64,000 nt of DNA from the NCBI GenBank assembly GCA_050290185.1, contig JBNKHE010000005.1, positions 96,001 through 160,000 on the forward strand, in the 5' to 3' direction. Below the pieces are notes generated by a model. It worked only from the letters and a program-made list of their open reading frames with translations. It was not told the origin of the DNA and ran no database searches. Below, one piece after another: positions 42,188 through 58,093 of this stretch. The DNA comes from Pontiella sp. (GTDB lineage: Bacteria; Verrucomicrobiota; Kiritimatiellia; Kiritimatiellales; Pontiellaceae). A program made the translations under genes and the position numbers. Each line of letters opens with the position of its first letter. Within the stretch, counting starts at the first letter, position 1.

Positions 42188-43372
42188 ATGAAGTTTATTT
42201 ATTCATGGCGGTGGTTTGGTCCGAACGACCGGATTCGGCTGGAGGAGATCCGGCAGGCGGGTGCGACGGGCGTTGTTTCGGCGCTGCATCAGATTCCGGT
42301 GGGCGAGGTATGGTCCAAGGACGCCATTCTTGAGCGGAAACAAATGATCGAAGCCGCCGGATTGGAATGGGTGGTGGTTGAAAGCCTGCCGGTCAGTGAA
42401 GATATCAAGAAATGCAGCGGCGACTACCAACGGCATATCGAGAACTACAAGGTGTCGATCCGGAATCTGGCCGAATGCGGTCTCACGACCATCTGCTACA
42501 ATTTCATGCCCATCCTGGATTGGTCGCGCACCAACCTGAAGCTCGACTTTAAAGACGGCTCCTATACTTCGGAATTCCAACTGCATGTCTTTGCCGCTTT
42601 CGATCTATTCATGCTTAAACGAAGTGGGGCGGAGAAGGATTATCCACTCGAAGTGCTCGAGGAGGCACAGACGTTTTTTGAGCAACTCGATGCCGGAGGA
42701 AAAACAAAACTTCAGGAAACCATTCTCTATGGATTGCCGGGCTCCATGCAGACCTACACACCGGAAGAATTCCAGCAACTACTGGATTCCTATGCCGGTA
42801 TTGATCGCACGAAACTTAAAAGCCACTTGAGCTTGTTCTTAAACGAGGTGGTACCCGTAGCTGAGGCGTACAGCATAAAAATGGCGGTCCATCCCGACGA
42901 TCCGCCATGGAACCTGCTGGGGCTTCCGCGCATTGTCAGTAACGTTGACGATTTGATGGAGATCGTCGAAATGGTGGATTCGCCTTCAAACGGTGTGACC
43001 TTGTGCACCGGTTCGCTGGGGGGCGGACACTTCAACGATCTGCCCCGCATTGTCGAAGCCGTTGCACCGTCGATCCATTTCGTACATCTGCGTAACGTGG
43101 TCCGTGATGCGGGATTGAACTTCCAGGAAGAAGTCTTCTTCGAGGGCGATATTGATATGATCGCCGTGGTGAAGGCGTTGCTGAACGAAGGCAAGCGCCG
43201 GGGTGAAGCCGAAGGCCACGAATGGATCGTGCCTATTCGCCCTGATCACGGCCACCAGATACTGGATGACGTGGGTAGAGAAAACTATCCAGGCTACAGT
43301 CTATTCGGTCGAATGAAAAATCTGGCCGAGATTAAGGGGCTTACGCTGGGCCTGATGAGTTCAATCGATTAG
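42188..43372 (+). CDS. uxuA: Mannonate dehydratase
   Basis: WRWFGP.D, ALH.IP.GEVW, VVESLPV, CYNFMPILDW.RT, HPDDPP, LCTGSLG, RPDHGH. Confidence 0.96.
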   Translation: MKFIYSWRWFGPNDRIRLEEIRQAGATGVVSALHQIPVGEVWSKDAILERKQMIEAAGLEWVVVESLPVSEDIKKCSGDYQRHIENYKVSIRNLAECGLTTICYNFMPILDWSRTNLKLDFKDGSYTSEFQLHVFAAFDLFMLKRSGAEKDYPLEVLEEAQTFFEQLDAGGKTKLQETILYGLPGSMQTYTPEEFQQLLDSYAGIDRTKLKSHLSLFLNEVVPVAEAYSIKMAVHPDDPPWNLLGLPRIVSNVDDLMEIVEMVDSPSNGVTLCTGSLGGGHFNDLPRIVEAVAPSIHFVHLRNVVRDAGLNFQEEVFFEGDIDMIAVVKALLNEGKRRGEAEGHEWIVPIRPDHGHQILDDVGRENYPGYSLFGRMKNLAEIKGLTLGLMSSID

Positions 43373-43485: not shown

Positions 43486-43562
43486 GCCCCGGTAGCTCAG
43501 CTGGACAGAGCGACAGATTCCTAATCTGTAGGTCGGAGGTTCGAACCCTCTCCGGGGCACCA
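43486..43562 (+). tRNA. tRNA-Arg(CCT)
   Basis: GCCCCGG/CCGGGGC acceptor stem, D arm, anticodon arm ACAGA-TTCCTAA-TCTGT, GGTTCGAA T loop, encoded CCA. Confidence 0.97.
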
Positions 43563-43606: not shown

Positions 43607-43659
43607 TTTTCGGCTCCCAACAGCATTTTCCTGCCTGTGTTCTGGGCCTTTCTGTCAAA

Positions 43660-43731
43660 AAACAGCAATAAACAGTTTGTAAAAAGGAATATGGATAGCT
43701 AAAAGAAAGCAATCAGAAAGCAATAAGAAAC
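43660..43731 (+). promoter_or_regulatory. Candidate DeoR operator (phased direct repeats)
   Basis: AGAAAGCAAT at 43704 and 43715 (11-nt period), a partial third unit, and AAACAGCAAT-AAACAG at 43660, all just upstream of the DeoR gene. Confidence 0.5.
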
Positions 43732-43751
43732 CCACAGGGCTAGTATAGACC

Positions 43752-44507
43752 ATGACTGTAAATGTTTCAGAACGCAGGGGAATGATACTCGAAGTGCTGG
43801 CGGAGGATGGAAATGTCAGTGTTTCCGAGCTTGCCAAGCGCCTTGGGGTCACGGTGGTTACGGCCCGTGCCGATCTGGCGTCGCTGGAAGAAGAAGGTTA
43901 TCTGGTTCGCACGCATGGCGGCGCGATGCCGGCTTATCATCCCAAGATTCTCGAGCGCATCCGCAAGGATAAGGATCTTAAATCCGCGATTGCCAAGGCC
44001 GCTGCCCATGAAATCCAGAGCGGCGATACGGTGATCATCAGTGCGGGAACCACCACCGCACTCATTGCCAAATACCTGCTGGGCAAGCGCGATATCCACA
44101 TCGTAACCAATAACACCCTGCTGCTTACCTACGCCCGCACCAATCCGCAGTTGCGCGTTACGCTGGTCGGTGGCGAATTCCGCGCGGCGGAAGAGGGCAA
44201 CATTGGACCCATGGCTTTGGCGGCGTTGGATCAGTTTCATGTGTCCAAGGCCTTCATCGGAATCGACGGGGCTTCCGTAAAGCAGGGCTTTACCGCCCAC
44301 TTTGTCGAAACCGCCGACCTCGTTCGCAAGATGGCCGAGCAGGCGGACGAGGTCATCGTTATTTCCGATTCATGCAAGTTCGGCAAGCCGGGCTTTGCCC
44401 GCATTCTGCCATTCGATGGCGTTGATTCGCTTGTTACCGACAAGGAACTCACGACCGAATTTGAAACCGAATTAACCAATGCCGATGTACGTATCATCAA
44501 GTCGTAA
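43752..44507 (+). CDS. DeoR/GlpR-family transcriptional regulator
   Basis: ERR..IL..L....VSVSELA..LGV...T.R.DL..LE..G...RTHGGA HTH; sugar-phosphate sensor domain (GTTT, TNN, GG.FR, DS.KFG). Confidence 0.95.
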   Translation: MTVNVSERRGMILEVLAEDGNVSVSELAKRLGVTVVTARADLASLEEEGYLVRTHGGAMPAYHPKILERIRKDKDLKSAIAKAAAHEIQSGDTVIISAGTTTALIAKYLLGKRDIHIVTNNTLLLTYARTNPQLRVTLVGGEFRAAEEGNIGPMALAALDQFHVSKAFIGIDGASVKQGFTAHFVETADLVRKMAEQADEVIVISDSCKFGKPGFARILPFDGVDSLVTDKELTTEFETELTNADVRIIKS

Positions 44508-44518
44508 AGGAGAACGTT

Positions 44519-45838
44519 ATGGCGACAGAAGTATTAATGCCGAGACAGGGACAATCCGTTGAGTCCTGCATCATCATTGAATGGAAAGTGAACGAAGGCG
44601 ACGTCGTCTCTGAGGGACAGGCACTCTGCGAGGTCGAAACCGACAAGGCCACCTTCGAAGTCGAAGCGACTGCTTCCGGAACCGTGCTCGGCATCTTTTA
44701 CCCCGCCGAAGCCGACGTTGAAGTGTTGAAAGTCATCGCCGCCATCGGTGAACCGGATGAAGACATTTCGGGACTGCGGCCCGAAATGACAGAGGTCAGC
44801 GAGCAGAAGTCTGAGGTTAGTGAAGCAGTAGAAGCGCCGAAACCGGAACCGGCTCCGGCCGCTGTCACGCCTCAATCATCAATCGTCACGTCTTCCGGCG
44901 CATCACCCCGCGCCAAGAGTTTGGCGGACAAGAAAGGCGTCGACCTTTCCTCCATCGCGGGCTCCGGTCCGGGCGGACGCGTGATTGAACGCGATGTGGA
45001 TGCCGCTCCCGCCGTAACCCCGGCAGCCGCGGCCAAGGCCGCTGCCACAGGTCTTTCCATTCCTGCGGTCGGAACCGGAATGGGCGGCCGCGTTGTGCCC
45101 GCCGATTTGGTTGCCGTTGCTTCCTTGGAATTTCCCGGCGCCGTCACCGAAATCCCGATCAAGGGAGTTCGCAAGGTTGTTGCCAGCCGCATGCTCGATT
45201 CCCTTCAGAACACCGCACAGCTCACTCTTAATTCTTCAGCCGATGCCCGTTCGATCCTGGAATACCGGGAAAAGTGCAAGGCTGCTCCGGAGGAATATGG
45301 GGTGGGTGGTATCAGCATCAATGATGCAGTTCTCTACGCCACGGTCAAAACACTGGCCGAGTTCCCCGAACTCAATACGCACTGGAAGGGCGACAAGATG
45401 GTTCAGTTCGGTAACGTCCATCTTGGGTTTGCCGTCGACACGCCGCGCGGTCTGATGGTTCCCGTCATCCGCTTTGCCAACTTGATGAGTCTCAAACAGC
45501 TGTCCGTCGAAGCCAAGCGACTGGCCAAAGCCTGCCTCGATGGCACCATTGATCCGGACTCCCTGACGGGAGGAACTTTCACGGTCACCAATCTCGGGGC
45601 CATGGGCATCGAAAGCTTTACCCCGGTACTGAACAAGCCGGAGGTCGGTATTCTCGGTGTTTGCACCATCCAGCCGAAACCGGTGATGAAAGGTTCCGAG
45701 GTCGAGTTCGTGCCGCACATGGGCCTCTCGTTGACCTTCGATCACTGCGCTGTAGACGGCGCGCCCGCCGCACGTTTCCTGTCCGTATTGCGGCAGAAAC
45801 TCGCGAATTTCATGTTTGAACTCACATCGGAAAAATAA
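44519..45838 (+). CDS. Dihydrolipoamide acyltransferase (E2)
   Basis: Lipoyl domain EVETDKA, E3-binding ASPRA...GSGPGGRV, catalytic TFTVTNLG, LTFDH.AVDGA. Confidence 0.95.
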   Translation: MATEVLMPRQGQSVESCIIIEWKVNEGDVVSEGQALCEVETDKATFEVEATASGTVLGIFYPAEADVEVLKVIAAIGEPDEDISGLRPEMTEVSEQKSEVSEAVEAPKPEPAPAAVTPQSSIVTSSGASPRAKSLADKKGVDLSSIAGSGPGGRVIERDVDAAPAVTPAAAAKAAATGLSIPAVGTGMGGRVVPADLVAVASLEFPGAVTEIPIKGVRKVVASRMLDSLQNTAQLTLNSSADARSILEYREKCKAAPEEYGVGGISINDAVLYATVKTLAEFPELNTHWKGDKMVQFGNVHLGFAVDTPRGLMVPVIRFANLMSLKQLSVEAKRLAKACLDGTIDPDSLTGGTFTVTNLGAMGIESFTPVLNKPEVGILGVCTIQPKPVMKGSEVEFVPHMGLSLTFDHCAVDGAPAARFLSVLRQKLANFMFELTSEK

Positions 45839-45841
45839 ACC

Positions 45842-47185
45842 ATGGTTTACGATATTATCATTATTGGAGCGGGGCCTGGCGGCTATGAAATGGCCGAGCG
45901 GGCAGGGCATAAGGGGCTGAAGGTGCTGCTGATTGAAAAGCAGTATCTCGGCGGCGTTTGTCTTAACTGGGGCTGCATCCCGACCAAGACCCTGCTCAAT
46001 TCCGCTAAACACTATGTTCATGCCAAGGAGGCGCCGGAGTTCGGGGTCAATGTTGGCGATGTCCAGTTCGACCTCGATAAGACGATGGCTTGGAAGCAGG
46101 ACGTGATCGAAACCTTGCGTGGCGGGGTTGCGGCCATGATGAAGAAAAACAAGGTCGAAGTCCTTTACGGCACGGCCAAGCTGATTGATTCACGCAAGAT
46201 CGAAGTCGACGGCACGGTATACGAAGGCAACAACGTCGTAATCGCCACCGGCGGCTCCCCGTTTATTCCGCCGATTCCCGGTGCCGACCAGCCGCACGTC
46301 ATGACCAGCAAGGAAATCCTGAGCGTTGATACGATGCCGAAGTCGTTGGCCGTGATCGGCGGCGGCGTGATCGGGATTGAATTCGCCAGCTTCTTTAGCA
46401 GTCTGGGCGTCAAGGTCGACGTGATTGAAATGCTGGATGAAATCATTCCGTTCATGGACAACGATCAGGCGGCCCAGTTCCGCAAGGCACTCAAGGGCAA
46501 GGTCGATTTCAATCTCGGATGTCGCGTTACAGCCATCGACGGCCATGACGTGAAGTTCACCACCAAATCGGGTGAGGAAAAGTCGATCAATGCCGACATT
46601 GTGCTGATGTCCGTTGGCCGCTCGCCGAACCTGTCCGGTATGGGCGTCGAAGAAGCCGGGCTTGATTTTGATCGTCGCGGCATCAAGACCGACGACCAGC
46701 AACGCACCAATCTACCGAACGTCTACGCCATCGGCGACGTTACCGGAAAATCACAGCTGGCTCACTCGGCCACCCGCATGGGCGAGGTGGCGCTCAATAC
46801 GATTCTCGGCAAGAAGGATCGTTTCCGCACCAACGCCATTCCGTGGGCGGTGTATTCGATGCCGGAAATCGCGGGCTGCGGCCTGACTGAAAAACAAGCG
46901 AAGGAGGCAGGGCATAATGTCAAGGCCGCCTCGTTGCCGCTCATCATGAGCGGACGCTTCCTTGCTGAAAACGGCAAGCGCGGTCCGGGTTCCGTCAAGG
47001 TGGTTGTCGATGCCGATACCCAGGCGCTGCTCGGCGTGCACATGTTCGGGGCCTATAGCTCGGAAATCATTTGGGGCGTCGCCGCCATGATCGAGTCCGG
47101 ACTCCGTGTCGAGGATGTCCAGGAAATCGTCTTCCCGCACCCGACGGTCGGGGAAGTTATTCGCAGTACGATGTTTCAGTTTTAA
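45842..47185 (+). CDS. lpdA: Dihydrolipoyl dehydrogenase (E3)
   Basis: [39 protein letters not shown]. Confidence 0.96.
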
Positions 47186-47247
47186 TCAATCAGTCTGATC
47201 AGACGAACCCGACCGATCTGTCTGATCATTTTTTAAAGGAGCCAACC

Positions 47248-49701
47248 ATGCCAAAAGATCAAGTTATATGCCCAGAGGAAACCCGCAAGGCGGGGGAAAT
47301 AACCTTTAAGCCGATTCCGATCAACCAGTACAAATCGGACTACAAGAAGGAAGAGAAGAAGTACGGCAAGGAGCGTCTCGTCAAGATGTACTACGACATG
47401 CTCATGATCCGCGAATTCGAAACCATGCTGAACCAGATCAAGGTTCAAGGATCCTATGAAGGCATGGAATACAATCATCCGGGGCCGGCCCACTTGTCGA
47501 TTGGCCAGGAGGCCGCGGCGGTTGGTCAATCGGTCAATCTGGACACCGATGACTACATCTTCGGCTCGCACCGTTCGCATGGTGAAATTCTGGCCAAGTG
47601 CCTGTCCGCGATCTACCAACTCGACGACGCCAAGCTGAACAGCATCATGGAAGGGTTCTTTGATGGCGCTACGTTGAAGGTCGTAAAGGATGGCTCACAC
47701 GAGAGTGCCAAGGATTTGGCGGAAGACTTCATCCTTTACGGCACTCTGGCGGAAATCTTCGCCCGCGACACCGGCATCAACCGTGGCCTTGGCGGCTCAA
47801 TGCATGCCTTCTTCATTCCGTTCGGATCCATGCCGAACAACGCACTGGTGGGCGGTTCCGCGGACATTTCCGTCGGTTCGGCTATGAACAAGCTGATCAA
47901 CCGCAAGCCCGGCATCGTGATTGCAAACATCGGCGACGCCTCCATGGGCTGCGGCCCGGTCTATGAAGGCATCTGGATGGCGGCGATGGACCAATATGTC
48001 GAGCTGTGGGACAAAGAATTCGGCCATCCCCCGGTACTGATCAATATCATGAACAACCAGTATGGCATGGGGGGGCAGACGGTTGGCGAAACCATGAGCT
48101 ACAAATACGCGGCGCGTATCGGCGCGGGCATCAACTCCCATCAGATGCATGCGGAACGTGTCGACGGATACAATCCGCTGGCGGTGGCCGATGCCACCGA
48201 ACGCAAGAAAAAAGTTCTTCTCGAAGGTAAGGGGCCGGCTCTACTCGACATCGTTACCTACCGTATTTCCGGACACTCTCCATCCGATGCTTCGTCCTAT
48301 CGTTCCAAGGAAGAGATGGAGCTTTGGGAAGCACAGGATTGCGTTCGCACCTTCGGCGAATACCTCATCGAAAACGGCGCTCTCTCCGAAACGGATGCCG
48401 AAGCCTTGAAGGCCAAGGTTGTTGCCAAGGTCAGCAAAGCCATGAAGCTGGCGATCGATGAATCGGTTTCCCCGTATTCTGATGTCGGTCTGATCGAAAA
48501 GGTCATGTACTCCAACGGCAAGGTTGAGAAATTCGATGACCGCGAGCCGGAACTGCTGCAGAAGCTCGAAGACAACGATCGCGTTAAGCAGCTGAAGCGC
48601 AAAAAACGGTATGCGTTTGACGAAACCGGCCAGCCCTACAAGCCCAACCAGCTTTACACCTTCCGCGACGGCATTTTCGAAGCCATGGCCCACCGCTTTA
48701 CCGTGGACCCCTCCATGATTGCCTACGGCGAGGAAAACCGCGACTGGGGCGGGGCATTCGCCTGCTACCGCGGTTTGACGGAATTGCTGCCGTACCATCG
48801 CCTGTTCAACTCGCCGATTTCGGAAGGCGCGATTGTTGGAACCGCCTGCGGTTATGCCCTGAGCGGCGGCCGAGTGTGCGCCGAGCTGATGTATTGCGAT
48901 TTCATGGGCCGCGCCGGCGATGAAATCTTCAACCAGATCGCCAAGTGGCAGTCGATGTCCGCCGGCATCCTGAAAATGCCGCTGGTGCTCCGCGTTTCCG
49001 TGGGCAACAAGTATGGCGCGCAGCATTCGCAGGACTGGACCGCAATGGTCAACCATATCCCGGGCCTGAAGGTTTACTATCCGGCGACGACCTACGATGC
49101 CAAGGGCATGCTCAACCTGGCGCTGGCCGGAACCGATCCGGTGATCTTCTTCGAATCGCAGAAGACCTACGGCGTGGGCGAGCTGTTCGAAAAGGGCGGG
49201 GTGCCGGAAGGCTACTATGAAACGGAAGAGGGAGAGCCAGCGGTTCGTGTTCAGGGCAAAGACCTGACGCTCGTAACGCTCGGTCCGGTGCTCTACAGCG
49301 GCATGAAGGTGGTTGATGAAATGAAGGAAAAGTACGGCATGGAAGTCGAACTTATCGACCTGCGTTTCGTCGCGCCGCTCAACTACGACAAGATCGTCGA
49401 ATCCGTCAAGAAGACCGGTCGCATCGTGCTGGTCTCCGATGCGGTAGAGCGTGGTTCCGCGCTGCACAATATTGCATCGAACATCACGAACCTGTGCTTC
49501 GACTATCTCGATGCTCCGCCGGTGGTGATCGGTGCCAAGAACTGGATCTCTCCGGCCGCTGAAATGGAGAAGGATTACTTCCCGCAGTCCGAGTGGATCA
49601 TCGACGCGATCCACGAGCGCATCGTTCCGCTTCCAGGTCATGTGGTGAAGCACAACTATACCACTGGCGAAATGTTGCGCATTGCGCGGAAGGGTGTGTA
49701 A
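47248..49701 (+). CDS. Fused E1 alpha/beta ThDP-dependent dehydrogenase (acetoin/2-oxoacid dehydrogenase-like)
   Basis: [29 protein letters not shown]...NN ThDP motif, YR..GHS..D; beta part PISE.AI.G, EL.Y.DF, AQHSQ, ELIDLR. Confidence 0.93.
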
Positions 49702-49710
49702 AACTGACAA

Positions 49711-49754
49711 GTGACGATTGAGTCGTGACTCACGTTTTACGGCTCACTCGTCAC
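49711..49754. repeat. Imperfect palindromic element, copy 2 (after the E1 stop), inverted relative to copy 1
   Basis: GTGACGATTGAGTCGTGA-CTCACGTT-TTACGGCTCACTCGTCAC. Confidence 0.75.
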
Positions 49755-49771
49755 GAAACCAGAGGTTTTAT

Positions 49772-50992
49772 ATGGCACTAGAAGTAAACAACCACGTTCA
49801 CTCGACCTATTCGTTCAGCCCCTACACGCCGTCGGACATTCCGGAAAAGGCCAAACAGGCTGGACTTGGGACCGTTGGCATCATGGACCACGATTCGGTT
49901 TCTGGCTGCGAGGAGTTTCTTGAAGCCAGCAAAAAGATGGACATCGCGGCGACTATTGGTTTCGAGATGCGCGTCAATATGAACGGCACGTCGGTGGAAG
50001 GTCGCAAGACCAATAATCCCGACGAGCCTAACGTCAGTTACATCGCAATCCACGGTATTCCACGTAACCAGATTGCCAAGGTAAAGGACTTCCTGAAGCC
50101 GATCCACGAGGCGCGGATTGCGCGCGACCGGAAAGAAGTTGAAAAATTGAATGCGGTCCTGAACGAGCGTGGGGCCCCAACGCTTGATTTCGACGCCGAC
50201 GTTCTAGCCATCTCCAATGCGGCTGATGGAGGATCGGTCACCGAACGCCACATTCTCTATGCGCTGTCGCTTAAGCTGATCGAGGAGCATGGCAAGGGTG
50301 AGTGGCTGGTTGGATTTGTCGAAAATCAGATGAAGATTCCATTGGCCGGCAAGCTCAAGGAACTGTTGCTTGATACGGGCAATCCGCACTATGCCTACGA
50401 TTTGCTGGGGGCGTTTAAGTCGGAATTGGTTCCCGAGTTTTTCATTGTTTCGGACTACGACGAATGCATCTCCGTCCATGACGCCGTCAAATTTGGAAAC
50501 GAAATCGGCGCGATCCCGGCCTATGCCTACCTCGGCGATGTCGGCGAATCACCGACCGGAGACAAGAAGGCAGAAAAGTTCGAGGATGATTTCCTCGATG
50601 AGCTGGTGCCCGAGCTGAAGCAGCTCGGCTTCAAGGCGATCACCTACATGCCGCCGCGCAACACCCTTGAACAACTAATGCGGTTGCAAAAGCTTTGCCA
50701 GGAAAACGGCCTGATGGAAATCAGCGGTGTGGACATCAACAGTTCGCGGCAGTCGTTCAACTGCCCGATCCTGCTGGAGCCGGAATTCAAGCATCTGGCC
50801 GATGCGGCTTGGGCGCTGATTGCGCATGAAAAGCTCGCTGACGCCGATCCGAAACTGGCACTGTTTAGTGATAAAAACCCGCTGGCCAGCAAGCCGCTGG
50901 AAGAGCGTGTTGCCCGTTATGCAGAGATTGGAAAACGGATTGATCATTCCCGTCCTGAAGAGGCGATCAATCTGAAGGGAGATTTGAAATGA
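49772..50992 (+). CDS. PHP-domain protein (atypical C-terminal metal ligands)
   Basis: NNHVHSTYS, GIMDHD, GFE; C-terminal GVDINS instead of GSDxH; GAGG SD. Confidence 0.85.
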   Translation: MALEVNNHVHSTYSFSPYTPSDIPEKAKQAGLGTVGIMDHDSVSGCEEFLEASKKMDIAATIGFEMRVNMNGTSVEGRKTNNPDEPNVSYIAIHGIPRNQIAKVKDFLKPIHEARIARDRKEVEKLNAVLNERGAPTLDFDADVLAISNAADGGSVTERHILYALSLKLIEEHGKGEWLVGFVENQMKIPLAGKLKELLLDTGNPHYAYDLLGAFKSELVPEFFIVSDYDECISVHDAVKFGNEIGAIPAYAYLGDVGESPTGDKKAEKFEDDFLDELVPELKQLGFKAITYMPPRNTLEQLMRLQKLCQENGLMEISGVDINSSRQSFNCPILLEPEFKHLADAAWALIAHEKLADADPKLALFSDKNPLASKPLEERVARYAEIGKRIDHSRPEEAINLKGDLK

Positions 50993-52068
50993 AAAAGAAA
51001 GCACTCGAAATCGCGCCAATGCTACGCGGACTGAGCTTTGATGGAGAAAAGGGTGACGTTGTCGTATTCAAGGATCGGATCGACTATGCCGAACTCACGT
51101 GCAAGGCGGATGAGTTGGCCGAAAAATACGAGAAGGGTATGCACTCGGTCTATGTTGAAGGTGTCGGCGGCTTCCTGCTTGGCGAGGACTACGACGATGC
51201 CATGAACGGAACCTCTGCCGCACCGATCTCGACCGGTCGTGCCGCGGTGGTACACAACAAGGTTTGCGTGGTGACCGGCGGGGCGCAGGGATTCGGCGAA
51301 GGCATCGTGCGCGAACTCATCAAAAACGGAGCGACCGTGTTCATTGCGGACATGAACGTGGGTGGAGCCAAAAAGCTGGCACTGGAGCTCAATGAAGAGG
51401 CCGGGCGTACCGTGGCCTTTGGCATTTCCGTCAACGTGACCGATGAAAAGTCGGTCGAGAAGATGGTGGTGGAAATCGTTAAGACCGTGGGCGGAATCGA
51501 CCTGTTTGTCAGCAACGCCGGAGTGCTCAAGGCCGGCAGCGTAAAGGAAATGACGCTTAAGGATTTCGAGTTCGTGACCGACGTCAACTATATCGGCTTC
51601 TTCCTATGCACGAAACATGTTGCGCCGGTGATGGAGCGTATGAACAAGCCGCACGGAAACTACTACACCGACATCATCAGCATCAGCTCCAAGTCGGCGT
51701 TGGAAGGTTCCAATAAGAACGGTGCCTATGCCGGCTCAAAGTTCGGTTCTGTTGGTCTGGTGCAGAGTTTTGCCAAGGAACTGGTGGTGGATAACACCAA
51801 GGTCAACACCGTCTGCCCTGGAAACTTTTTCGACGGGCCGCTGTGGTCCGACCCCGAGAAGGGGCTGTTTACGCAGTACCTCAATACCGGGAAGGTGCCG
51901 GGAGCCAAAACCGTCGAGGATGTCCGCCATTACTACGAATCGCAAATCCCGATGGGCCGCGGATGCGATGGAGAAGACGTCACGAAGGCCATTCTCTACA
52001 CGGTCGAACAGAAATATGAAACCGGCCAAGCCATCCCCGTCACTGGCGGCCAGGTGATGCTGAACTAA
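50989..52068 (+). CDS. SDR oxidoreductase, sorbitol-6-phosphate dehydrogenase (SrlD/SorD)-like, with ~85-aa N-terminal extension
   Basis: TGGAQGFG, NAG, SKS, N.AYAGSKFG, CPGNFF.GPLW, LF.QY, TGQAIPVTGGQVM. Confidence 0.88.
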   Translation: MKKKALEIAPMLRGLSFDGEKGDVVVFKDRIDYAELTCKADELAEKYEKGMHSVYVEGVGGFLLGEDYDDAMNGTSAAPISTGRAAVVHNKVCVVTGGAQGFGEGIVRELIKNGATVFIADMNVGGAKKLALELNEEAGRTVAFGISVNVTDEKSVEKMVVEIVKTVGGIDLFVSNAGVLKAGSVKEMTLKDFEFVTDVNYIGFFLCTKHVAPVMERMNKPHGNYYTDIISISSKSALEGSNKNGAYAGSKFGSVGLVQSFAKELVVDNTKVNTVCPGNFFDGPLWSDPEKGLFTQYLNTGKVPGAKTVEDVRHYYESQIPMGRGCDGEDVTKAILYTVEQKYETGQAIPVTGGQVMLN

Positions 52069-52126
52069 TGACCGACAACGAATAACCAATAACAATTTAC
52101 GATTAACTATTACCCGGAGGGTAACC

Positions 52127-53398
52127 ATGAAAACCAAGGCAGTCAGACTTTACGGCGAGAAAGATTTGCGGTTGGAGGAGTTCGAACTTCCGGCCATCGG
52201 TGAAAACGAAATCCTTGCCAAGATCGTATCCGATTCCATCTGCATGTCGTCCTACAAGGCGGCGTCGCAGGGCATCAAGCACAAGCGCATTCCTGACAAT
52301 GTGGCGGACGAGCCGATCATTATCGGGCACGAGTTCTGCGGCGAGATCGTGGAGGTCGGCAGCAAATGGGCGGATCAGTTCACGGCAGGCGACAAGTTTT
52401 CGATCCAGCCCGCGATCAACTATAAAAATGGCCCCGTAGGCATTCTTTCGGCGCCGGGCTATTCGTACCAATACATCGGCGGCGATTCGCAATATGTCAT
52501 CATTCCCGCCGAGGTCATGGCGCAGGATTGCCTGTTGCCGTTCAACGGCGAAGCCTACTATCACGGTTCGCTGGCCGAACCGATGTCCTGCATCGTGGGC
52601 GGCTTCCACGCCAACTACCACACCAAGCCCGGCAGCTATGTCCACGAAATGGGCATCGTTGAGGGCGGTGCGATGGCGTTGCTCGCCGGCGTTGGCCCAA
52701 TGGGGCTGGGCGCGATCGACTATGCGATCCACTGCGACCGCAAGCCGGGGCTGCTGGTGGTCACCGATATCGACAATGCCCGACTGGAACGTGCCGCATC
52801 GATCTACACGGTTGAAGAAGCCAGGGCCAACGGCGTTGAGCTGATCTATGTCAATACGGCGGAAGAAAGCCATGGCGTGGACTACCTGAAGTCGCTTACT
52901 CCTAAGGGTGAGGGCTTCAACGACGTCTTCGTGTATGCTCCGGTTCGCCCCGTGATCGAGCAGGCTGATAAGCTGCTGGCGTTCGATGGCTGTCTGAATT
53001 TCTTTGCCGGCCCGACCGATCCCGCTTTTTCGGCCGAGTTCAACTTCTACAACGTTCATTATGCTGCCACGCACGTGGTCGGTACAAGCGGCGGCAACAC
53101 CGATGATATGATCGAGTCGCTGAAAATGATGGAAGAGGGGCGCCTGAACCCGTCCACCATGATCACGCACGTTGGCGGTCTCGATGCGGTAATCGATACC
53201 ACCCTGAATCTGCCGAATATTCCGGGTGGCAAGAAGCTGGTCTATAACAATGTCAGCATGCCGCTGGTGGCGCTGAATGATCTGAAGGGCTTGGCCGGCG
53301 AATTCTATCAGGGCCTGGCCGCGATCGTTGAAAAACACAATGGCCTGTGGAGCCCGGAAGCCGAGCAATACCTATTGGCCAACGCGCCGGCGATTTAA
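52127..53398 (+). CDS. Zn-binding dehydrogenase, L-sorbose-1-phosphate reductase (SorE)-like
   Basis: MKTKAVRLYG..DLRLE.F.LP, DSICMS, IIGHEFCG, SPGYSY-like APGYSY, SLAEPMSC, DGCLNFFAGP, HVVGTSGG, IPGGKKL, GLWS.EAE.YLL. Confidence 0.9.
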   Translation: MKTKAVRLYGEKDLRLEEFELPAIGENEILAKIVSDSICMSSYKAASQGIKHKRIPDNVADEPIIIGHEFCGEIVEVGSKWADQFTAGDKFSIQPAINYKNGPVGILSAPGYSYQYIGGDSQYVIIPAEVMAQDCLLPFNGEAYYHGSLAEPMSCIVGGFHANYHTKPGSYVHEMGIVEGGAMALLAGVGPMGLGAIDYAIHCDRKPGLLVVTDIDNARLERAASIYTVEEARANGVELIYVNTAEESHGVDYLKSLTPKGEGFNDVFVYAPVRPVIEQADKLLAFDGCLNFFAGPTDPAFSAEFNFYNVHYAATHVVGTSGGNTDDMIESLKMMEEGRLNPSTMITHVGGLDAVIDTTLNLPNIPGGKKLVYNNVSMPLVALNDLKGLAGEFYQGLAAIVEKHNGLWSPEAEQYLLANAPAI

Positions 53399-53510
53399 AA
53401 GGGGATTGTAGGGCTGGAACGGTCACAGACCTTCAAGCCGCGGCGGGAAGGCCTTCAGCCATTCCCGCCCAACAATGTTAGCGGAAAAATCATTGAGAGG
53501 GGTTGGGACA

Positions 53511-54965
53511 ATGGCGAAGCATTATCTGGCAGTGGATCTAGGGGCATCAAGCGGACGCACCATTGTAGGAACCTTAGATGAAGGAAAGCTGACGCTCAAG
53601 GAGATGAACCGGTTCTGGAACGGTCCGACGGAAATCCGTGGCACGCTCCATTGGGATTTTGTCCATCTGTTTCGCTGTATCCAGGAAGGCATTGCTCTCG
53701 CCAAAAAGGAGTTCGGGGACGGTCTTGTTTCGATGGGAATCGATACCTGGGGCGTCGATTTTGGTTTGTTCGATGCCGACGGGAAGCTGCTTCGCAATCC
53801 GGTCAACTATCGTGACAGCCGGACCAACGGCATGTTCGAAAAGGTGTTCGAACGCGTGCCTAAGGAAGAAGTATTTGCCCAGACCGGCATCCAGTTTATG
53901 GAGATCAATACCCTCTATCAGCTGATGGCACTTTCCTTGTCGGATTCAGCCCAATACCGAATGGCCGACAAGCTGCTCTTCTCACCGGATCTGCTGGGGT
54001 ATTGGCTGACCGGCAACATGGTAGCTGAACGAAGCATCGCCAGCACCTCCCAGTTCTACAATCCGGTGACGAAAGACTGGGCATACGACCTGCTGGAAAA
54101 GTTGGGCATTCGGACCGATCTGTTTGCCGAACTAGTCGATCCCGGAACCGTGATCGGCGAAACCGATGGATTGCCGGTGGTAGCGGTCGGCGGACACGAC
54201 ACCGCCAGCGCCTTTGCGGCCGTGCCGGTTTCCGAGGGGGAACATTGCGCCTTTCTTAGTTCCGGCACCTGGTCTCTGCTTGGAACGGAGCTGACCGAGC
54301 CTGTCATTAACGAAGGATCACTAGCGGCCAACTTTACCAACGAGGTCGGCGTATGCGGTACCATCCGTTTCCTGAAGAACCTTTCCGGCCTGTGGATTAT
54401 CCAGGAGCTGCGCCGGGTTTGGAACGAACAGGACTGCGACTATTCGTGGGCAGCCATGGAACACATGGCGCTGGAGGCCCAACCATTTGAGTTCTTCATT
54501 GATCCGAGCGATGAGGGATTCCTTGCCCCGGGCGATATGCCATCACGGATCCAGGACTACTGCGAACACACGGGGCAGGGGCGTCCTGAAACCCATGCAC
54601 AGATCCTGCGCGCCGCCTATGAAGGGCTGGCCTTGCTTTATGCGGATGTCTACGAATCGCTCGAAACCCTGTCAGGCCGCAAACTGGACATATTGCGCAT
54701 CGTAGGCGGCGGATGCAAGGATACCTTGCTCAATCAGCTGGCTGCCAACGCCACCGGTCGCAAGGTCGTAACCGGCCCGACCGAGGCCACGGCAACGGGC
54801 AATCTGATTGTCCAGATGTTGGCGATGGGGGACATCCAATCGCTCGATGACGGGCGTGAAATCATCCGTAACTCCTTCGCCGGGGAAACGAAGGAGTTCA
54901 TCCCTCAGAATACCGATGCATGGCAAGCCGCACGGGTGAACTGGCGGGCATTGGTCGGAAAGTAG
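53511..54965 (+). CDS. Rhamnulokinase/fuculokinase-like FGGY sugar kinase
   Basis: YLAVDLGASSGR, GIDTWGVDF, YRD.RT, TGIQF..INTLYQL, HDTASA, SSGTWSLLG.E, FTNE.G, LKN..GLW, GP.EATA.GN. Confidence 0.92.
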   Translation: MAKHYLAVDLGASSGRTIVGTLDEGKLTLKEMNRFWNGPTEIRGTLHWDFVHLFRCIQEGIALAKKEFGDGLVSMGIDTWGVDFGLFDADGKLLRNPVNYRDSRTNGMFEKVFERVPKEEVFAQTGIQFMEINTLYQLMALSLSDSAQYRMADKLLFSPDLLGYWLTGNMVAERSIASTSQFYNPVTKDWAYDLLEKLGIRTDLFAELVDPGTVIGETDGLPVVAVGGHDTASAFAAVPVSEGEHCAFLSSGTWSLLGTELTEPVINEGSLAANFTNEVGVCGTIRFLKNLSGLWIIQELRRVWNEQDCDYSWAAMEHMALEAQPFEFFIDPSDEGFLAPGDMPSRIQDYCEHTGQGRPETHAQILRAAYEGLALLYADVYESLETLSGRKLDILRIVGGGCKDTLLNQLAANATGRKVVTGPTEATATGNLIVQMLAMGDIQSLDDGREIIRNSFAGETKEFIPQNTDAWQAARVNWRALVGK

Positions 54966-55124: not shown

Positions 55125-56465
55125 TTAGAAAGTGCCCATCGGTTTTTTGTCTGCATTAATTGCTGTTCCGAATACAGGCCCGTCCAGCGTCATCTCCCTA
55201 GGGTCAAGTTCCATCTTCGATACAAGTTTCTCGTCCACCGGAGTGGTTTTGAATATGGGGAGAACCGGGCGAGGGCCCGCATCGGATTCAACCATTTTAT
55301 AGCTTACTCCCTGCTTTTCGATGAGCAGTCGGCTAGCGAAGAATCCGCCCGGAAATTCTCCAATTAGGATGTCAACATCCACGGGTTGACCTTTTCTCAG
55401 TCTTACCCAGTCACCAATAACCAAACGCGATGCCAAAGACATGTAGCTGCCTTTAGGGTCGAAATTCTCGCCATCGATTTTAACCTGGCCCAAGGTATAA
55501 CCCCAGCTAACATCGCTGTCATAGCCACCTAGGTCTTCAATCTGCGAGAAGATGTCCATGAAGTCAGCACCCTTTACGCTCCCATAATTTTTCTGATTAA
55601 TAGGAAACCTATAGCTGTCGTCATTGTCGCTTTTCCAGAATGACACTTGTCCGATTAGCTCTGGCCAGCTGGCATCCAGTACCACCCGTTTTCCAACGCG
55701 GACGATCAGAATATCATCTCCGATTCCGCAGAAACGATAGCTTCCGGTTTCCGGGGCGGCAATCTGTCCCTTGTAATGGCAAATCCAATATTTACCCTGA
55801 ACCTTGTCATCAACACCGAAGGCCTCGGGAGCAGCTTCAGCGGCCATAGGCGGCATTATAAACGAGGTTGAGTATTTCAGTTTGGGTGCCTTGAAGAAGT
55901 CCTTGAGACGCCTTTCGCTAAAACCGGAACCGACGAATCCCTTGATGACCTTGCACGCAAGAACTTGAGTATCAGGACTGTATGAATTTTCCTCGGCCAA
56001 TTCCCCGATCTTAGTCAGTTCACCATCTTGGTCTTGTTTTAGGTCGTAAAAGGTACCGATGAATTCGTTACCTGTGCCTCTGCTGCTCCCAAAGAGGTCC
56101 AAATCAAATCCGAATCCCAGTCCTCCAAGTCCATCACCTTGTCCATATCCCGTGCCTCCGGGTACGCCGATGATTTCCGGCATCTGGATGTTTACGTCCT
56201 TGTATTTTGGCTTCGTTACAATGGTGTGGCGCAACTTTGGGGCCTGGGCTTTTTTCTCCTTAACGGGCACCTGCAGTTTCTTAAGCTTCATCTTGGGACG
56301 TTTGACTGCCGTGGCCTCAAAGATCTGCTCGGGTTTGACATATACCTGTACAGCGACAAAGGTGAGCGCAACGACAATAAACACAATATGTATAATGACG
56401 CTCACCACCAAAGCACTCGATTTTTTGTGGTTCAGGAAAAAAAACTTTTTCTTTTGTTCGCTCAT
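55125..56465 (-). CDS. Membrane-anchored hypothetical protein, PA14-like domain (paralog 1)
   Basis: N-terminal TM with SVIIH, K/P-rich linker, Gly-rich hinge, W..HYKGQI.APE.G.YRF.G..DD...V.V pattern. Confidence 0.8.
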   Translation of the reverse strand: MSEQKKKFFFLNHKKSSALVVSVIIHIVFIVVALTFVAVQVYVKPEQIFEATAVKRPKMKLKKLQVPVKEKKAQAPKLRHTIVTKPKYKDVNIQMPEIIGVPGGTGYGQGDGLGGLGFGFDLDLFGSSRGTGNEFIGTFYDLKQDQDGELTKIGELAEENSYSPDTQVLACKVIKGFVGSGFSERRLKDFFKAPKLKYSTSFIMPPMAAEAAPEAFGVDDKVQGKYWICHYKGQIAAPETGSYRFCGIGDDILIVRVGKRVVLDASWPELIGQVSFWKSDNDDSYRFPINQKNYGSVKGADFMDIFSQIEDLGGYDSDVSWGYTLGQVKIDGENFDPKGSYMSLASRLVIGDWVRLRKGQPVDVDILIGEFPGGFFASRLLIEKQGVSYKMVESDAGPRPVLPIFKTTPVDEKLVSKMELDPREMTLDGPVFGTAINADKKPMGTF

Positions 56466-56654: not shown

Positions 56655-57977
56655 TTAGAATGCGCCCAAGGCCTTTTTCTTGCCATTAATACCTACGCCG
56701 AAGACAGGACCGTCCAGCGTTGCATGGTTTGAATCAATTTTCATTTGTCCGGCCAGTTTTTCATCAATCTCGGTTGTTTTGAATACCGGCAGGACCGGTC
56801 GGGGACCGGCATCGGATGGCACCATCTTATAGTGTTTGCCTTCCTGCTCGATCATGAGCCGGCACATGAAACTTCCACCTGGGATTTCGCCGATCAGAAT
56901 ATCAATATCGACCGCTTGCCCTTTCCTCAGGGTGAACCAGTCTCCATACACCATGCGGCAGGCCAGTTTCCACGAGTCGACGGCAAAGGGCTCACCATTT
57001 ACACGGATATCCTTGATCGCCTCATAAAACTGTCTGGAGCCATTCCATCCACCGAGATCCTCAATCTGTGAATAGATGTCCTTGAAATTGATGCCATCGA
57101 TCAAAGCACGATCCAAAGGAAACAAGCGGTTCTGGTCTGATTTGCTCAGCCAATCGGACATTAGCTTGATATGTTCCGCCCAGCAGGCATCGAGAACCAT
57201 TCGACGTCCCACTCGTACGAACAGCACATCGTCGCCCAATCCGCAAAAACGGTAGCGGCCACTTTCCGGCGCAGCAATTTGGCCTTTGTAGTGACATACC
57301 CAGTAACTGGGTTTCACCTGATCTTCTACGCCAAAGGCTTCCGGGGCCGCGTTGGCATCAATTGGCGGCATCATCAGTGCCGTAGCATACTTTAGTTTGG
57401 GGCCTTTGAAGTAACCGTTGAGTCGCCCTTCATTAAAGCCGGAGCCGACGAAGCCCTTGATAACCTTATACAAGGCCTCTTTCGCATGGTTCTTGTTCTT
57501 ATCCTGCACCGCCTTCCCGATATCCGTCAGGTCTCCATCCGGCTCCTGCTTAAGGTCATAGAAGGTTCCGATCAGCTCGTTTCCCGAGCCCCGGCTACCA
57601 CCGAACAGATCCAGATCAAAATTGAAACCCAACCCTCCAAGTCCATCACCTTTTCCGTATCCCGTGCCTCCGGGTACGCCGATGATTTCCGGCATCTGGA
57701 TGTTTACGTCCTTGTATTTGGGTTTCGTTACAATGGTGTGGCGCAACTTGGGGGCCTGGACTTTTTTCTCCTTAACGGGCACCTGAAGTTTCTTAAGCTT
57801 CATCTTGGGACGTTTGACATCCGTGGCCTCAAAGGTCTGCTCGGGTTTGACATACACCTGTACCGCAACAAAGGTGAGCGCTACGACAATGAACACAATA
57901 TGTATAACGACGCTCACCACCAAAGCGCTCGACTTTTTGTGGTTCAGGAAAAAAAATCTCTTCTTTCGTTCGCTCAT
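56655..57977 (-). CDS. Membrane-anchored hypothetical protein, PA14-like domain (paralog 2)
   Basis: Collinear with paralog 1; first ~120 aa near-identical. Confidence 0.8.
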   Translation of the reverse strand: MSERKKRFFFLNHKKSSALVVSVVIHIVFIVVALTFVAVQVYVKPEQTFEATDVKRPKMKLKKLQVPVKEKKVQAPKLRHTIVTKPKYKDVNIQMPEIIGVPGGTGYGKGDGLGGLGFNFDLDLFGGSRGSGNELIGTFYDLKQEPDGDLTDIGKAVQDKNKNHAKEALYKVIKGFVGSGFNEGRLNGYFKGPKLKYATALMMPPIDANAAPEAFGVEDQVKPSYWVCHYKGQIAAPESGRYRFCGLGDDVLFVRVGRRMVLDACWAEHIKLMSDWLSKSDQNRLFPLDRALIDGINFKDIYSQIEDLGGWNGSRQFYEAIKDIRVNGEPFAVDSWKLACRMVYGDWFTLRKGQAVDIDILIGEIPGGSFMCRLMIEQEGKHYKMVPSDAGPRPVLPVFKTTEIDEKLAGQMKIDSNHATLDGPVFGVGINGKKKALGAF

Positions 57978-58093
57978 GCTCAATCAACCTTTAATTTTCT
58001 TTTCATGTAGTCGACATCAACTACACCTTCTGAATCCATATAGTAAACCGCACATATATAGCGGAATAATAGCGAAGTAGAAGTCCAAACTAC

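Follow-up and report, generated by a model that had tools for sequence, protein, structure and literature searches.

The subject of this report is an eight-gene operon of Pontiella sp. that very probably belongs to a conserved module for 6-deoxyhexose catabolism. The window analyzed is a stretch of 64,000 nucleotides, positions 96,001-160,000 of the forward strand of contig JBNKHE010000005.1 (assembly GCA_050290185.1), and the operon occupies 43752-54965 (+) within it. All eight genes are intact, share one orientation, and are closely packed, with intergenic gaps of 11, 3, 62, 70, -4, 58, and 112 nucleotides in order. The original prediction had described eight co-oriented, packed genes and named a family for each, and gene calls and family scans agree with it. 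The features are listed here with their strand; thiamine diphosphate is abbreviated ThDP, and the short-chain and medium-chain dehydrogenases/reductases are called SDR and MDR.

43640..43751 (+): candidate DeoR operator/promoter region, suggested by A-rich GAAAG-type repeats about 10-11 nucleotides apart
43752..44507 (+): DeoR-family sugar-phosphate-sensing regulator, 251 amino acids; Pfam DeoRC and HTH_DeoR, best NCBIfam models AgaR/GlpR/SrlR, all below cut-off
44519..45838 (+): E2 lipoyl acyltransferase, 439 amino acids; PF00364, PF02817, PF00198
45842..47185 (+): E3 dihydrolipoyl dehydrogenase, 447 amino acids; TIGR01350, 493 bits against a cut-off of 409
47248..49701 (+): fused ThDP-dependent E1 alpha-beta, 817 amino acids; PF00676, PF02779, PF02780
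49772..50992 (+): PHP-fold protein, 406 amino acids, with a reduced metal site; putative epimerase, from the fold model, structure search, and residue comparison
50989..52068 (+): sorbitol-6-phosphate-dehydrogenase-like SDR, 359 amino acids, with an N-terminal RhaE-type aldolase remnant; PRK12384, SrlD structure match
52127..53398 (+): SorE/YggP-like Zn-dependent MDR, 423 amino acids; candidate ketose-1-phosphate reductase, from identity to SorE/YggP
53511..54965 (+): RhaB-like FGGY kinase, 484 amino acids; probable fuculokinase of the genome; TIGR02627

The ATG codons at 47248 (E1), 49772 (PHP), and 53511 (kinase) are the likely starts, judged from ribosome-binding sites and the lengths of relatives. 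The E1 start has AAGGAG upstream, and relatives of E1 are also 817 amino acids long. In the family scans, E3 is the only one of the eight proteins that clears a curated function cut-off. Among named relatives, the closest come from Pontiella, with an identity of about 90%. The GAAAG-type pattern 5' of deoR persists when the regions upstream of 13 deoR genes are aligned. A search for sigma-70 sites upstream of the operon gave none above chance, and the promoter and terminator scan stayed at chance level. Just 5' of the operon are uxuA (mannonate dehydratase; 42188-43372, +) and a tRNA-Arg(CCT) gene (43486-43562, +). Membership of uxuA in the operon was rejected because the tRNA gene intervenes and uxuA is missing from all 80 related loci. 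In relatives, small IVP-like and PD-(D/E)XK genes occur between operon genes (L003:1426-1803, L007:638-1069, L013:9348-9674, and L015:6545-6937; L numbers denote related loci).

The genes for the ThDP-dependent E1, the lipoyl E2, and E3 sit together in the operon, and the E2 carries lipoyl, E3-binding, and acyltransferase domains in Pfam. In a family alignment of 79 rows, the fused E1 is a distinct family with two sub-clades. Against equivalog models of the pyruvate dehydrogenase (PDH), 2-oxoglutarate dehydrogenase (OGDH), and branched-chain 2-oxoacid dehydrogenase (BCKDH) type, E1 scores 217 with a cut-off of 321 and 193 with a cut-off of 394. Models for AcoA or AcoB are absent among the NCBIfam matches given for E1. 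The E2 reaches 274 against 445 in the same type of test and is below the PDH, OGDH, and AcoC cut-offs (68 against 307 for AcoC NF011457). A housekeeping PDH or BCKDH identity was rejected; all PDH, BCKDH, and OGDH models fall far under cut-off. Acetoin dehydrogenase (AcoABCL) cleaves a methyl ketol oxidatively to acetyl-CoA and an aldehyde. The operon has the same combination of ThDP-dependent E1, lipoyl E2, and E3, and the chemistry proposed for it is of this kind; unlike AcoABCL, its E1 is fused and constitutes its own family, and its context is one of sugar-phosphate enzymes under a DeoR regulator.

The only other PF00676 match in this genome is a fused E1 alpha-beta-E2 protein of 1110 amino acids (G000:C6:153772-157101). 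Many relatives have an E3 of about 571 amino acids with an extra N-terminal lipoyl domain (L002:3299-5011, L003, L009, L013, L124, L126) that is not present in the window E3. In L052 and L103, a mannitol-1-phosphate-dehydrogenase-like gene is found close to E1. Rhizobial plasmids encode E1 orthologues of 50-51% identity together with a hydrolase, sugar kinases, and a free lipoyl domain, and distant orthologues adjoin sugar kinases in all three plasmid loci examined. In L127, L128, and L129 (Rhizobium, Pleomorphomonas, and Agrobacterium plasmids), an alpha/beta hydrolase replaces E2 beside the E1-family gene, the free lipoyl domain, and the sugar kinases; from a ketose phosphate, this arrangement may yield an acid in free form. 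The Rhizobium pRL80079-88 cluster contains a full-length fused E1 that is 51% identical (pRL80083, by counting from named tags), and a sugar kinase, a sugar-phosphate epimerase, and a FucU-family gene are nearby. There, too, a free lipoyl domain and an alpha/beta hydrolase stand in place of E2, and no SorE, SrlD, or PHP is annotated in the stretch of the cluster that was covered. A review table and a preprint passage list this cluster for homoserine catabolism, and the phenotype reported for it is homoserine use.

The best model for the window SDR is the sorbitol-6-phosphate dehydrogenase PRK12384 (225 against a cut-off of 307), and its best PDB match is SrlD 5o3z (E 3e-44). The module SDRs of L026, L087, and L133 clear PRK12384 (367, 368, and 324 against 307), and that of L132 clears PRK06171, a second sorbitol-6-phosphate dehydrogenase subfamily. 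Two above-cut-off subfamilies in the SDR slot point to a D-gluco polyol-6-phosphate as the probable substrate. The MDR is 50% identical over its whole length to annotated L-sorbose-1-phosphate reductases (SorE) and 52% identical to E. coli YggP. In the sorbose pathway, SorE and SorD/SrlD follow a chain-flipping logic. The operon has a comparable pair in its SorE-like MDR and SrlD-like SDR, though SorE sorbose operons are linked to a phosphotransferase system (PTS) and the Pontiella operon is without a PTS gene. By the tests run, the module appears to work like an acetoin dehydrogenase combined with a sorbose-type flip while being a member of neither family. Sorbose or sorbitol use was rejected as the purpose of the module, since there is no PTS and the Pontiella type strains, in the part of their description available, show growth on neither L-sorbose nor sorbitol. 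An inorganic pyrophosphatase or HAD phosphatase gene is often directly 3' of the MDR gene in Kiritimatiellales loci (L002, L007, L124, L152; L009, L052).

The kinase has rhamnulokinase TIGR02627 as its best model (472 against a cut-off of 528; FucK 115) and, by inference from this resemblance, works like RhaB/FucK. In a tblastn search of the genome, the operon gene is the sole match. Because there is no paralogue, the operon kinase is likely the fuculokinase that has been described as missing in Pontiella.

The AlphaFold2 model of the PHP protein has a pLDDT of 93.5, and its best Foldseek matches are 2yb1 and 3o0f (E about 1e-10, 17-19% identity), which confirms the PHP fold. An ESM Atlas search with the PHP protein returned unnamed clusters only. 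The protein shares the fold, the HxH motif, and Glu ligands with the PHP phosphoesterases of the 2yb1/3o0f/RNase AM group, but it keeps only H8, H10, E65, and D/E321 as metal ligands. It has no Asp after HxH, H40 is variable, and an invariant N323 occupies the place of the terminal His of 2yb1. The full multi-metal ligand set of 2yb1 and 3o0f is therefore not present. Ketose-phosphate 3-epimerases have a metal site of two His and two carboxylates. Because the residues kept match this arrangement, the PHP protein may be a single-metal epimerase.

The conservation of the module was followed at two levels. Retrieval with the MDR gave 80 related loci, with counts made within the fetched flank and many contigs ending early. 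Among these loci, E1 is found in 39, PHP in 34, the SDR in 50, and the kinase in 14; an orthologue of at least one of E1, E2, PHP, or SDR is present in 58 of the 80, so the grouping is not chance. The loci come from Kiritimatiellota, Bacillota, Spirochaetota, Bacteroidota, Fibrobacterota, Lentisphaeria, and Planctomycetota and show several gene orders. The linkage of E1/E2/E3 to the SorE, SDR, and kinase genes, which had been claimed from the window, thus extends across phyla. Partial modules also occur in Clostridia, spirochaetes, and Bacteroidota. Six MDR loci without a partner share another context, which by inspection of labels has the look of a mannitol-type PTS with a PfkB kinase.

The second level is a survey of 151 genomes of the class, in which E1 sets were sorted by hand, a few from fragments; related genomes are not independent, and the counts are descriptive. 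The fused E1 is present in 87 genomes, which divide without overlap into 41 whose E1 is at least 56% identical and 46 whose E1 is about 40% identical. PHP occurs in 80 of the 87 E1 genomes and in 1 of the 64 without E1. The expected co-occurrence with fucI/rhaA is found as well: FucI, a FucI-like protein, or RhaA is present in 83/87 E1 genomes as against 16/64 without E1, and 11 of these 16 belong to one family without the module. In 31 further module genomes from several phyla, RhaA or a fucose-isomerase domain is found in 29, compared with 2/6 PTS-type SorE controls. Some of these genes are direct neighbors: FucI adjoins E1 in L087 and L088, RhaA adjoins E1 in L120 and L123, RhaA and RhaM are in the L026 locus, a FucI-like gene and a kinase are in L090, and a fucosidase is beside E1 in L114. 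Gene clustering places a transketolase 3' of the module in 11 of 20 Kiritimatiellales-type loci (two members confirmed). The core module is E1/E2/E3 with PHP, usually accompanied by a SrlD-like SDR and some MDR. We are confident that the module is genuine and conserved and that it serves 6-deoxyhexoses.

Aldolases have a less simple relationship with the module. Gene calls and family scans found no isomerase, transporter, or intact aldolase inside the operon, as originally predicted. The SDR carries an N-terminal extension of about 87 amino acids that a multiple alignment identifies as the remnant of a RhaE-type aldolase fusion. Its catalytic domain is gone, and the intact class II aldolase features (GGGN, Glu/Asp, three His) are missing. 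The aldolase is kept in 21 of 53 close SDR homologues, and the remnant is found in 32. On a quick tree of the 53 homologues, the history of the domain takes four changes, and well-supported branches force at least two losses. The 655-amino-acid forms in relatives share an aldolase-SDR architecture with the aldolase/lactaldehyde dehydrogenase RhaEW (YuxG), as presented in the portion of PMC3870299 available. They differ from RhaEW in scoring 283 against the TIGR02632 cut-off of 568. RhaW is given there as 22% like SrlD, whereas the window SDR is SrlD-like and its copy is without the aldolase (PMC3870299).

The claim of an aldolase-free route marked by absence of fucA/rhaD does not generalize. 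A class II aldolase-family gene, AraD included, is present in 80/87 E1 genomes, so the absence of fucA was rejected as a module marker. A recheck of five of the seven aldolase-negative E1 genomes again gave no class II aldolase match; three of those rechecked are FucI-positive, RhaA-negative, 87-95% complete, and from one family. An aldolase is a frequent and perhaps dispensable companion of the module, not one that is kept out of it. LsrF-family genes above cut-off lie inside rhamnose or PHP loci at L137:7703-8914 and L153:8726-10600, one of them with an RPE-like epimerase. They possibly encode an aldolase for re-condensation or deal with the methyl end in a different manner. The RPE-like epimerase and LsrF genes show that stereochemical steps differ between lineages.

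In the rest of this genome, which is 95.5% complete, FucI is above cut-off, and FucU and a FucP-like gene are at contig ends. The genome has no match for RhaA or transaldolase, no strong match for AldA or FucO, and no match for lactate dehydrogenase with the one query used. One transketolase, one class II fructose-bisphosphate aldolase, and lipoate enzymes are present. Two class II aldolase-family genes were found: one in an operon that by inspection of labels is of the arabinose type, and an unlinked FucA-like gene whose 209-amino-acid protein keeps the zinc histidines and the catalytic Glu. In a relative, a protein of 553 amino acids with no NCBIfam match is encoded between fucU and fucI (L158:8372-10030), and it has four homologues in this genome (G000 C10, C4).

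The original prediction had L-fuculose- or L-rhamnulose-1-phosphate flipped and then cleaved directly. The transketolase 3' of the module fits the tetrose-4-phosphate product of that scheme. Its stereochemistry does not hold: by Fischer bookkeeping, reduction at C2, oxidation at C5, and cleavage give D-threose-4-phosphate or L-erythrose-4-phosphate, and D-erythrose-4-phosphate arises solely from an L-sorbo or L-psico ketose, i.e. after inversion of C3. One stereo-inversion is needed because the direct flip never yields D-erythrose-4-phosphate. The scheme also left PHP as the sole core module gene without an assigned step. PHP is the best candidate for the inversion we infer, and this is the weakest step of the scheme. 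The L-sorbo route preserves the native specificity of SorE and SrlD, and the reaction types of SorE, SrlD, RhaB, and AcoAB are established.

We propose a DeoR-controlled module for L-fucose, and for L-rhamnose where RhaA is present, in which the methyl end would be recovered as acetyl-CoA. FucI, encoded outside the operon, would convert L-fucose to L-fuculose, and the RhaB-like kinase would form L-fuculose-1-phosphate. PHP, acting as a single-metal epimerase, would invert C3 to give 6-deoxy-L-sorbose-1-phosphate; alternatively, the same carbon would be inverted after the flip. The SorE-like MDR would reduce 6-deoxy-L-sorbose-1-phosphate to 1-deoxy-D-glucitol-6-phosphate, and the SrlD-like SDR would oxidize the far end to the methyl ketol 1-deoxy-D-fructose-6-phosphate. 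Acetoin-like cleavage by E1/E2/E3 would then release acetyl-CoA, NADH, and D-erythrose-4-phosphate, which transketolase would carry into central metabolism. As there is no transaldolase, this entry would need a sedoheptulose-bisphosphate route if the explanation holds. The genes, folds, linkage, and co-occurrence are observed; every substrate assignment, the epimerase role, and the E1 cleavage are proposed. Flip-and-cleave to acetyl-CoA and erythrose-4-phosphate is the best reading overall, with a chance just short of even, and in the form that has PHP as the epimerase it is distinctly more tentative. The repeated losses of the aldolase domain from the SDR and the three aldolase-negative E1 genomes count for an aldolase-independent route.

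Physiological data in print bear on this proposal from both sides. The available part of PMC6388578 reports that P. desulfatans on fucose forms H2, acetate, ethanol, and minor succinate and lactate with 80% electron recovery; propanediol is named there for the other strain only and is not listed for P. desulfatans, in keeping with the proposal. The E1 of P. desulfatans (P0016) is 90% identical to the window E1, a comparison of E1 alone. By arithmetic, loss of the methyl half would cap electron recovery at 12/26, or 46%. The 80% recovery therefore indicates that P. desulfatans uses the methyl half by some route. AldA was not identified in P. desulfatans according to the portion of PMC7356697 available.

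A cluster with similar annotations has been described in Caldicellulosiruptor. The rhamnose cluster Athe_0695-0706/Csac_0865-0876 contains srlD, sorE, a hypothetical gene, E2-E3-single-gene E1, and DeoR, a likeness by annotation and gene order only (excerpts of PMC8579813 and PMC4187192). It lies beside rhaA with RhaB/FucK unlinked, whereas the kinase is in the operon in Pontiella. It also has fucA, rhaD1, rhaA, and lipoate genes, compared with an aldolase remnant in the Pontiella operon and fucose genes only in the genome. In the C. bescii rhamnose regulon, Athe_0702-4 is presented as a novel dehydrogenase of three subunits with homology to acetoin dehydrogenase, and the adjacent srlD and sorE are labeled "Sorbose?" (PMC8579813, in part). 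The original prediction had named no characterized pathway with this gene set. Indeed, the literature searched, which covered few subscription journals, contains no biochemical characterization of one; a cluster with matching annotations is in print, with a different proposal attached. No papers on 1-deoxy-D-fructose 6-phosphate, or on 6-deoxy-L-sorbose with lactaldehyde, were found in the same literature, and the module is not treated in the accessible portions of PMC13668718 and PMC8269263.

Several observations weigh against flip-and-cleave. The Csac cluster is rhamnose-induced in C. saccharolyticus, yet propanediol, acetate, H2, and CO2 are formed 1:1:1:1 (PMC4187192, in part). P. sulfatireligans has the operon (L009), and the excerpted data give 3.9 mM propanediol in its control cultures. 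The prevalence of aldolase-family genes in E1 genomes has already been given, and such a gene is also beside PHP in 8 of 20 PHP loci. The closest PHP structures are phosphoesterases, not epimerases. By hand count, a close SorE orthologue is present in 28/87 E1 genomes, and other MDR types fill the slot elsewhere; because the slot varies, SorE stereochemistry cannot be assumed. The pRL8 orthologue of E1 lies in the homoserine cluster, and the literature searched contains no activity data. In strains that make propanediol, lactaldehyde may be diverted to a reductase; alternatively, the function of the module may differ from the one proposed.

The first alternative, which we regard as unlikely, keeps the usual aldolase route. 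Here E1/E2/E3 would oxidize L-lactaldehyde to lactoyl-CoA, or via hydroxyacetone to acetyl-CoA, and the SorE/SrlD pair would have another purpose or one of them would reduce lactaldehyde to propanediol. Lactaldehyde has been proposed as the substrate of Athe_0702-4, with no experiment behind the proposal in the available text of PMC8579813. Aldolases are nearly universal in E1 genomes, this genome has the orphan FucA-like gene with its catalytic residues and no strong AldA/FucO match, and the lack of propanediol in P. desulfatans would also be accounted for. This explanation leaves PHP, the SrlD-like SDR, and the MDR without a function, though PHP tracks E1 almost perfectly, and it meets three FucI-positive E1 genomes with no class II aldolase match. 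The proposed tracing of C6 label into the acetate methyl group does not discriminate here, because lactaldehyde to lactate to pyruvate also places C6 there.

A second alternative, rather improbable, makes entry into the flip aldolase-dependent. FucA/RhaE would split the ketose-1-phosphate, and dihydroxyacetone phosphate (DHAP) and L-lactaldehyde would be re-joined to 6-deoxy-L-sorbose-1-phosphate by fructose-bisphosphate aldolase, an LsrF/DhnA-type aldolase, or PHP. Flip and cleavage to acetyl-CoA and erythrose-4-phosphate would follow, and lactaldehyde could overflow to propanediol. Native SorE and SrlD stereochemistry would be kept, the aldolases within or fused to the module and the LsrF-family genes of L137 and L153 would be explained, as would propanediol in strains with a reductase, and this genome has its one class II fructose-bisphosphate aldolase. 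Against this are the repeated loss of the fused aldolase domain, the aldolase-less E1 genomes, and the 1:1 propanediol of C. saccharolyticus, which leaves this route without flux in that organism.

There is only a slim chance that the SDR oxidizes C4 rather than C5 of a deoxy-polyol-1-phosphate. This would give a 3-hexulose-phosphate common to both sugars, from which E1 would form L-lactoyl-CoA and D-glyceraldehyde-3-phosphate by transketolase-style cleavage. No epimerase would be required and a glycolytic triose would be yielded (bookkeeping by hand), and alphaproteobacterial E1 orthologues adjoin xylulokinase and a mannitol/arabitol dehydrogenase-family gene, suggesting xylulose-5-phosphate-type substrates. 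However, module SDRs clear the sorbitol-6-phosphate dehydrogenase cut-offs, PHP has no role, lactate is minor in P. desulfatans, and the single lactate dehydrogenase query had no match here. Equally improbable is an E1 that is co-regulated with deoxy-sugar genes and acts as a decarboxylating dehydrogenase whose substrate is plain pyruvate or a 2-oxoacid with a hydroxyl or phosphate group: its motifs and best-scoring models are PDH-like, many orthologues carry the JGI label 2-oxoisovalerate dehydrogenase, and the pRL8 orthologue is in the homoserine cluster, but the PDH/BCKDH/OGDH scores are far too low, the genome has the second fused E1-E2 protein (C6), and no module gene makes a 2-oxoacid.

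Two other features of the window lie 3' of the operon. Tandem paralogues at 55125-56465 and 56655-57983 (-) encode proteins of 446 and 442 amino acids that are 67% identical, have near-identical N-termini with a hydrophobic stretch, and have no Pfam match. At 61800-63980 (+), a protein of 726 amino acids with two radical-SAM units clears the MqnC and MqnE cut-offs and has the appearance of a fused enzyme of the futalosine pathway.

Fucose and rhamnose rank among the main sugars in fucoidan, pectin, and mucin. Current models have anaerobes cleaving them into DHAP and lactaldehyde and disposing of half as propanediol. A recent classification of fucose users, as far as its available text goes, counts just the two MetaCyc routes. 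The gene set described here is widely shared among bacteria, and flip-and-cleave is a plausible proposal for its chemistry. The module is present in more than half of the sampled class genomes (87/151), and anaerobes of other phyla from gut, digester, and sediment have it as well. Strains in culture that carry the E1 gene would allow it to be tested directly. If the proposal is true, the route would give about 2.3 acetyl units per sugar, compared with 1 by the propanediol route (arithmetic), and would fill the missing fucK and aldA steps described for Pontiella. E1/E2/E3 complexes would also gain a new type of reaction, and the PHP fold would gain a non-hydrolytic role. With considerable doubt, we put forward the possibility that fucose and rhamnose have a third catabolic route that is widespread in anaerobes, with a PHP-fold protein as a new sugar-phosphate epimerase and oxidative, lipoate/ThDP-dependent cleavage of 1-deoxy-D-fructose-6-phosphate to acetyl-CoA and erythrose-4-phosphate. 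Were it correct, the wider E1 family would form a class of complexes to be called "ketose-phosphate dehydrogenase (acylating)", and its rhizobial forms would be coupled to a hydrolase.

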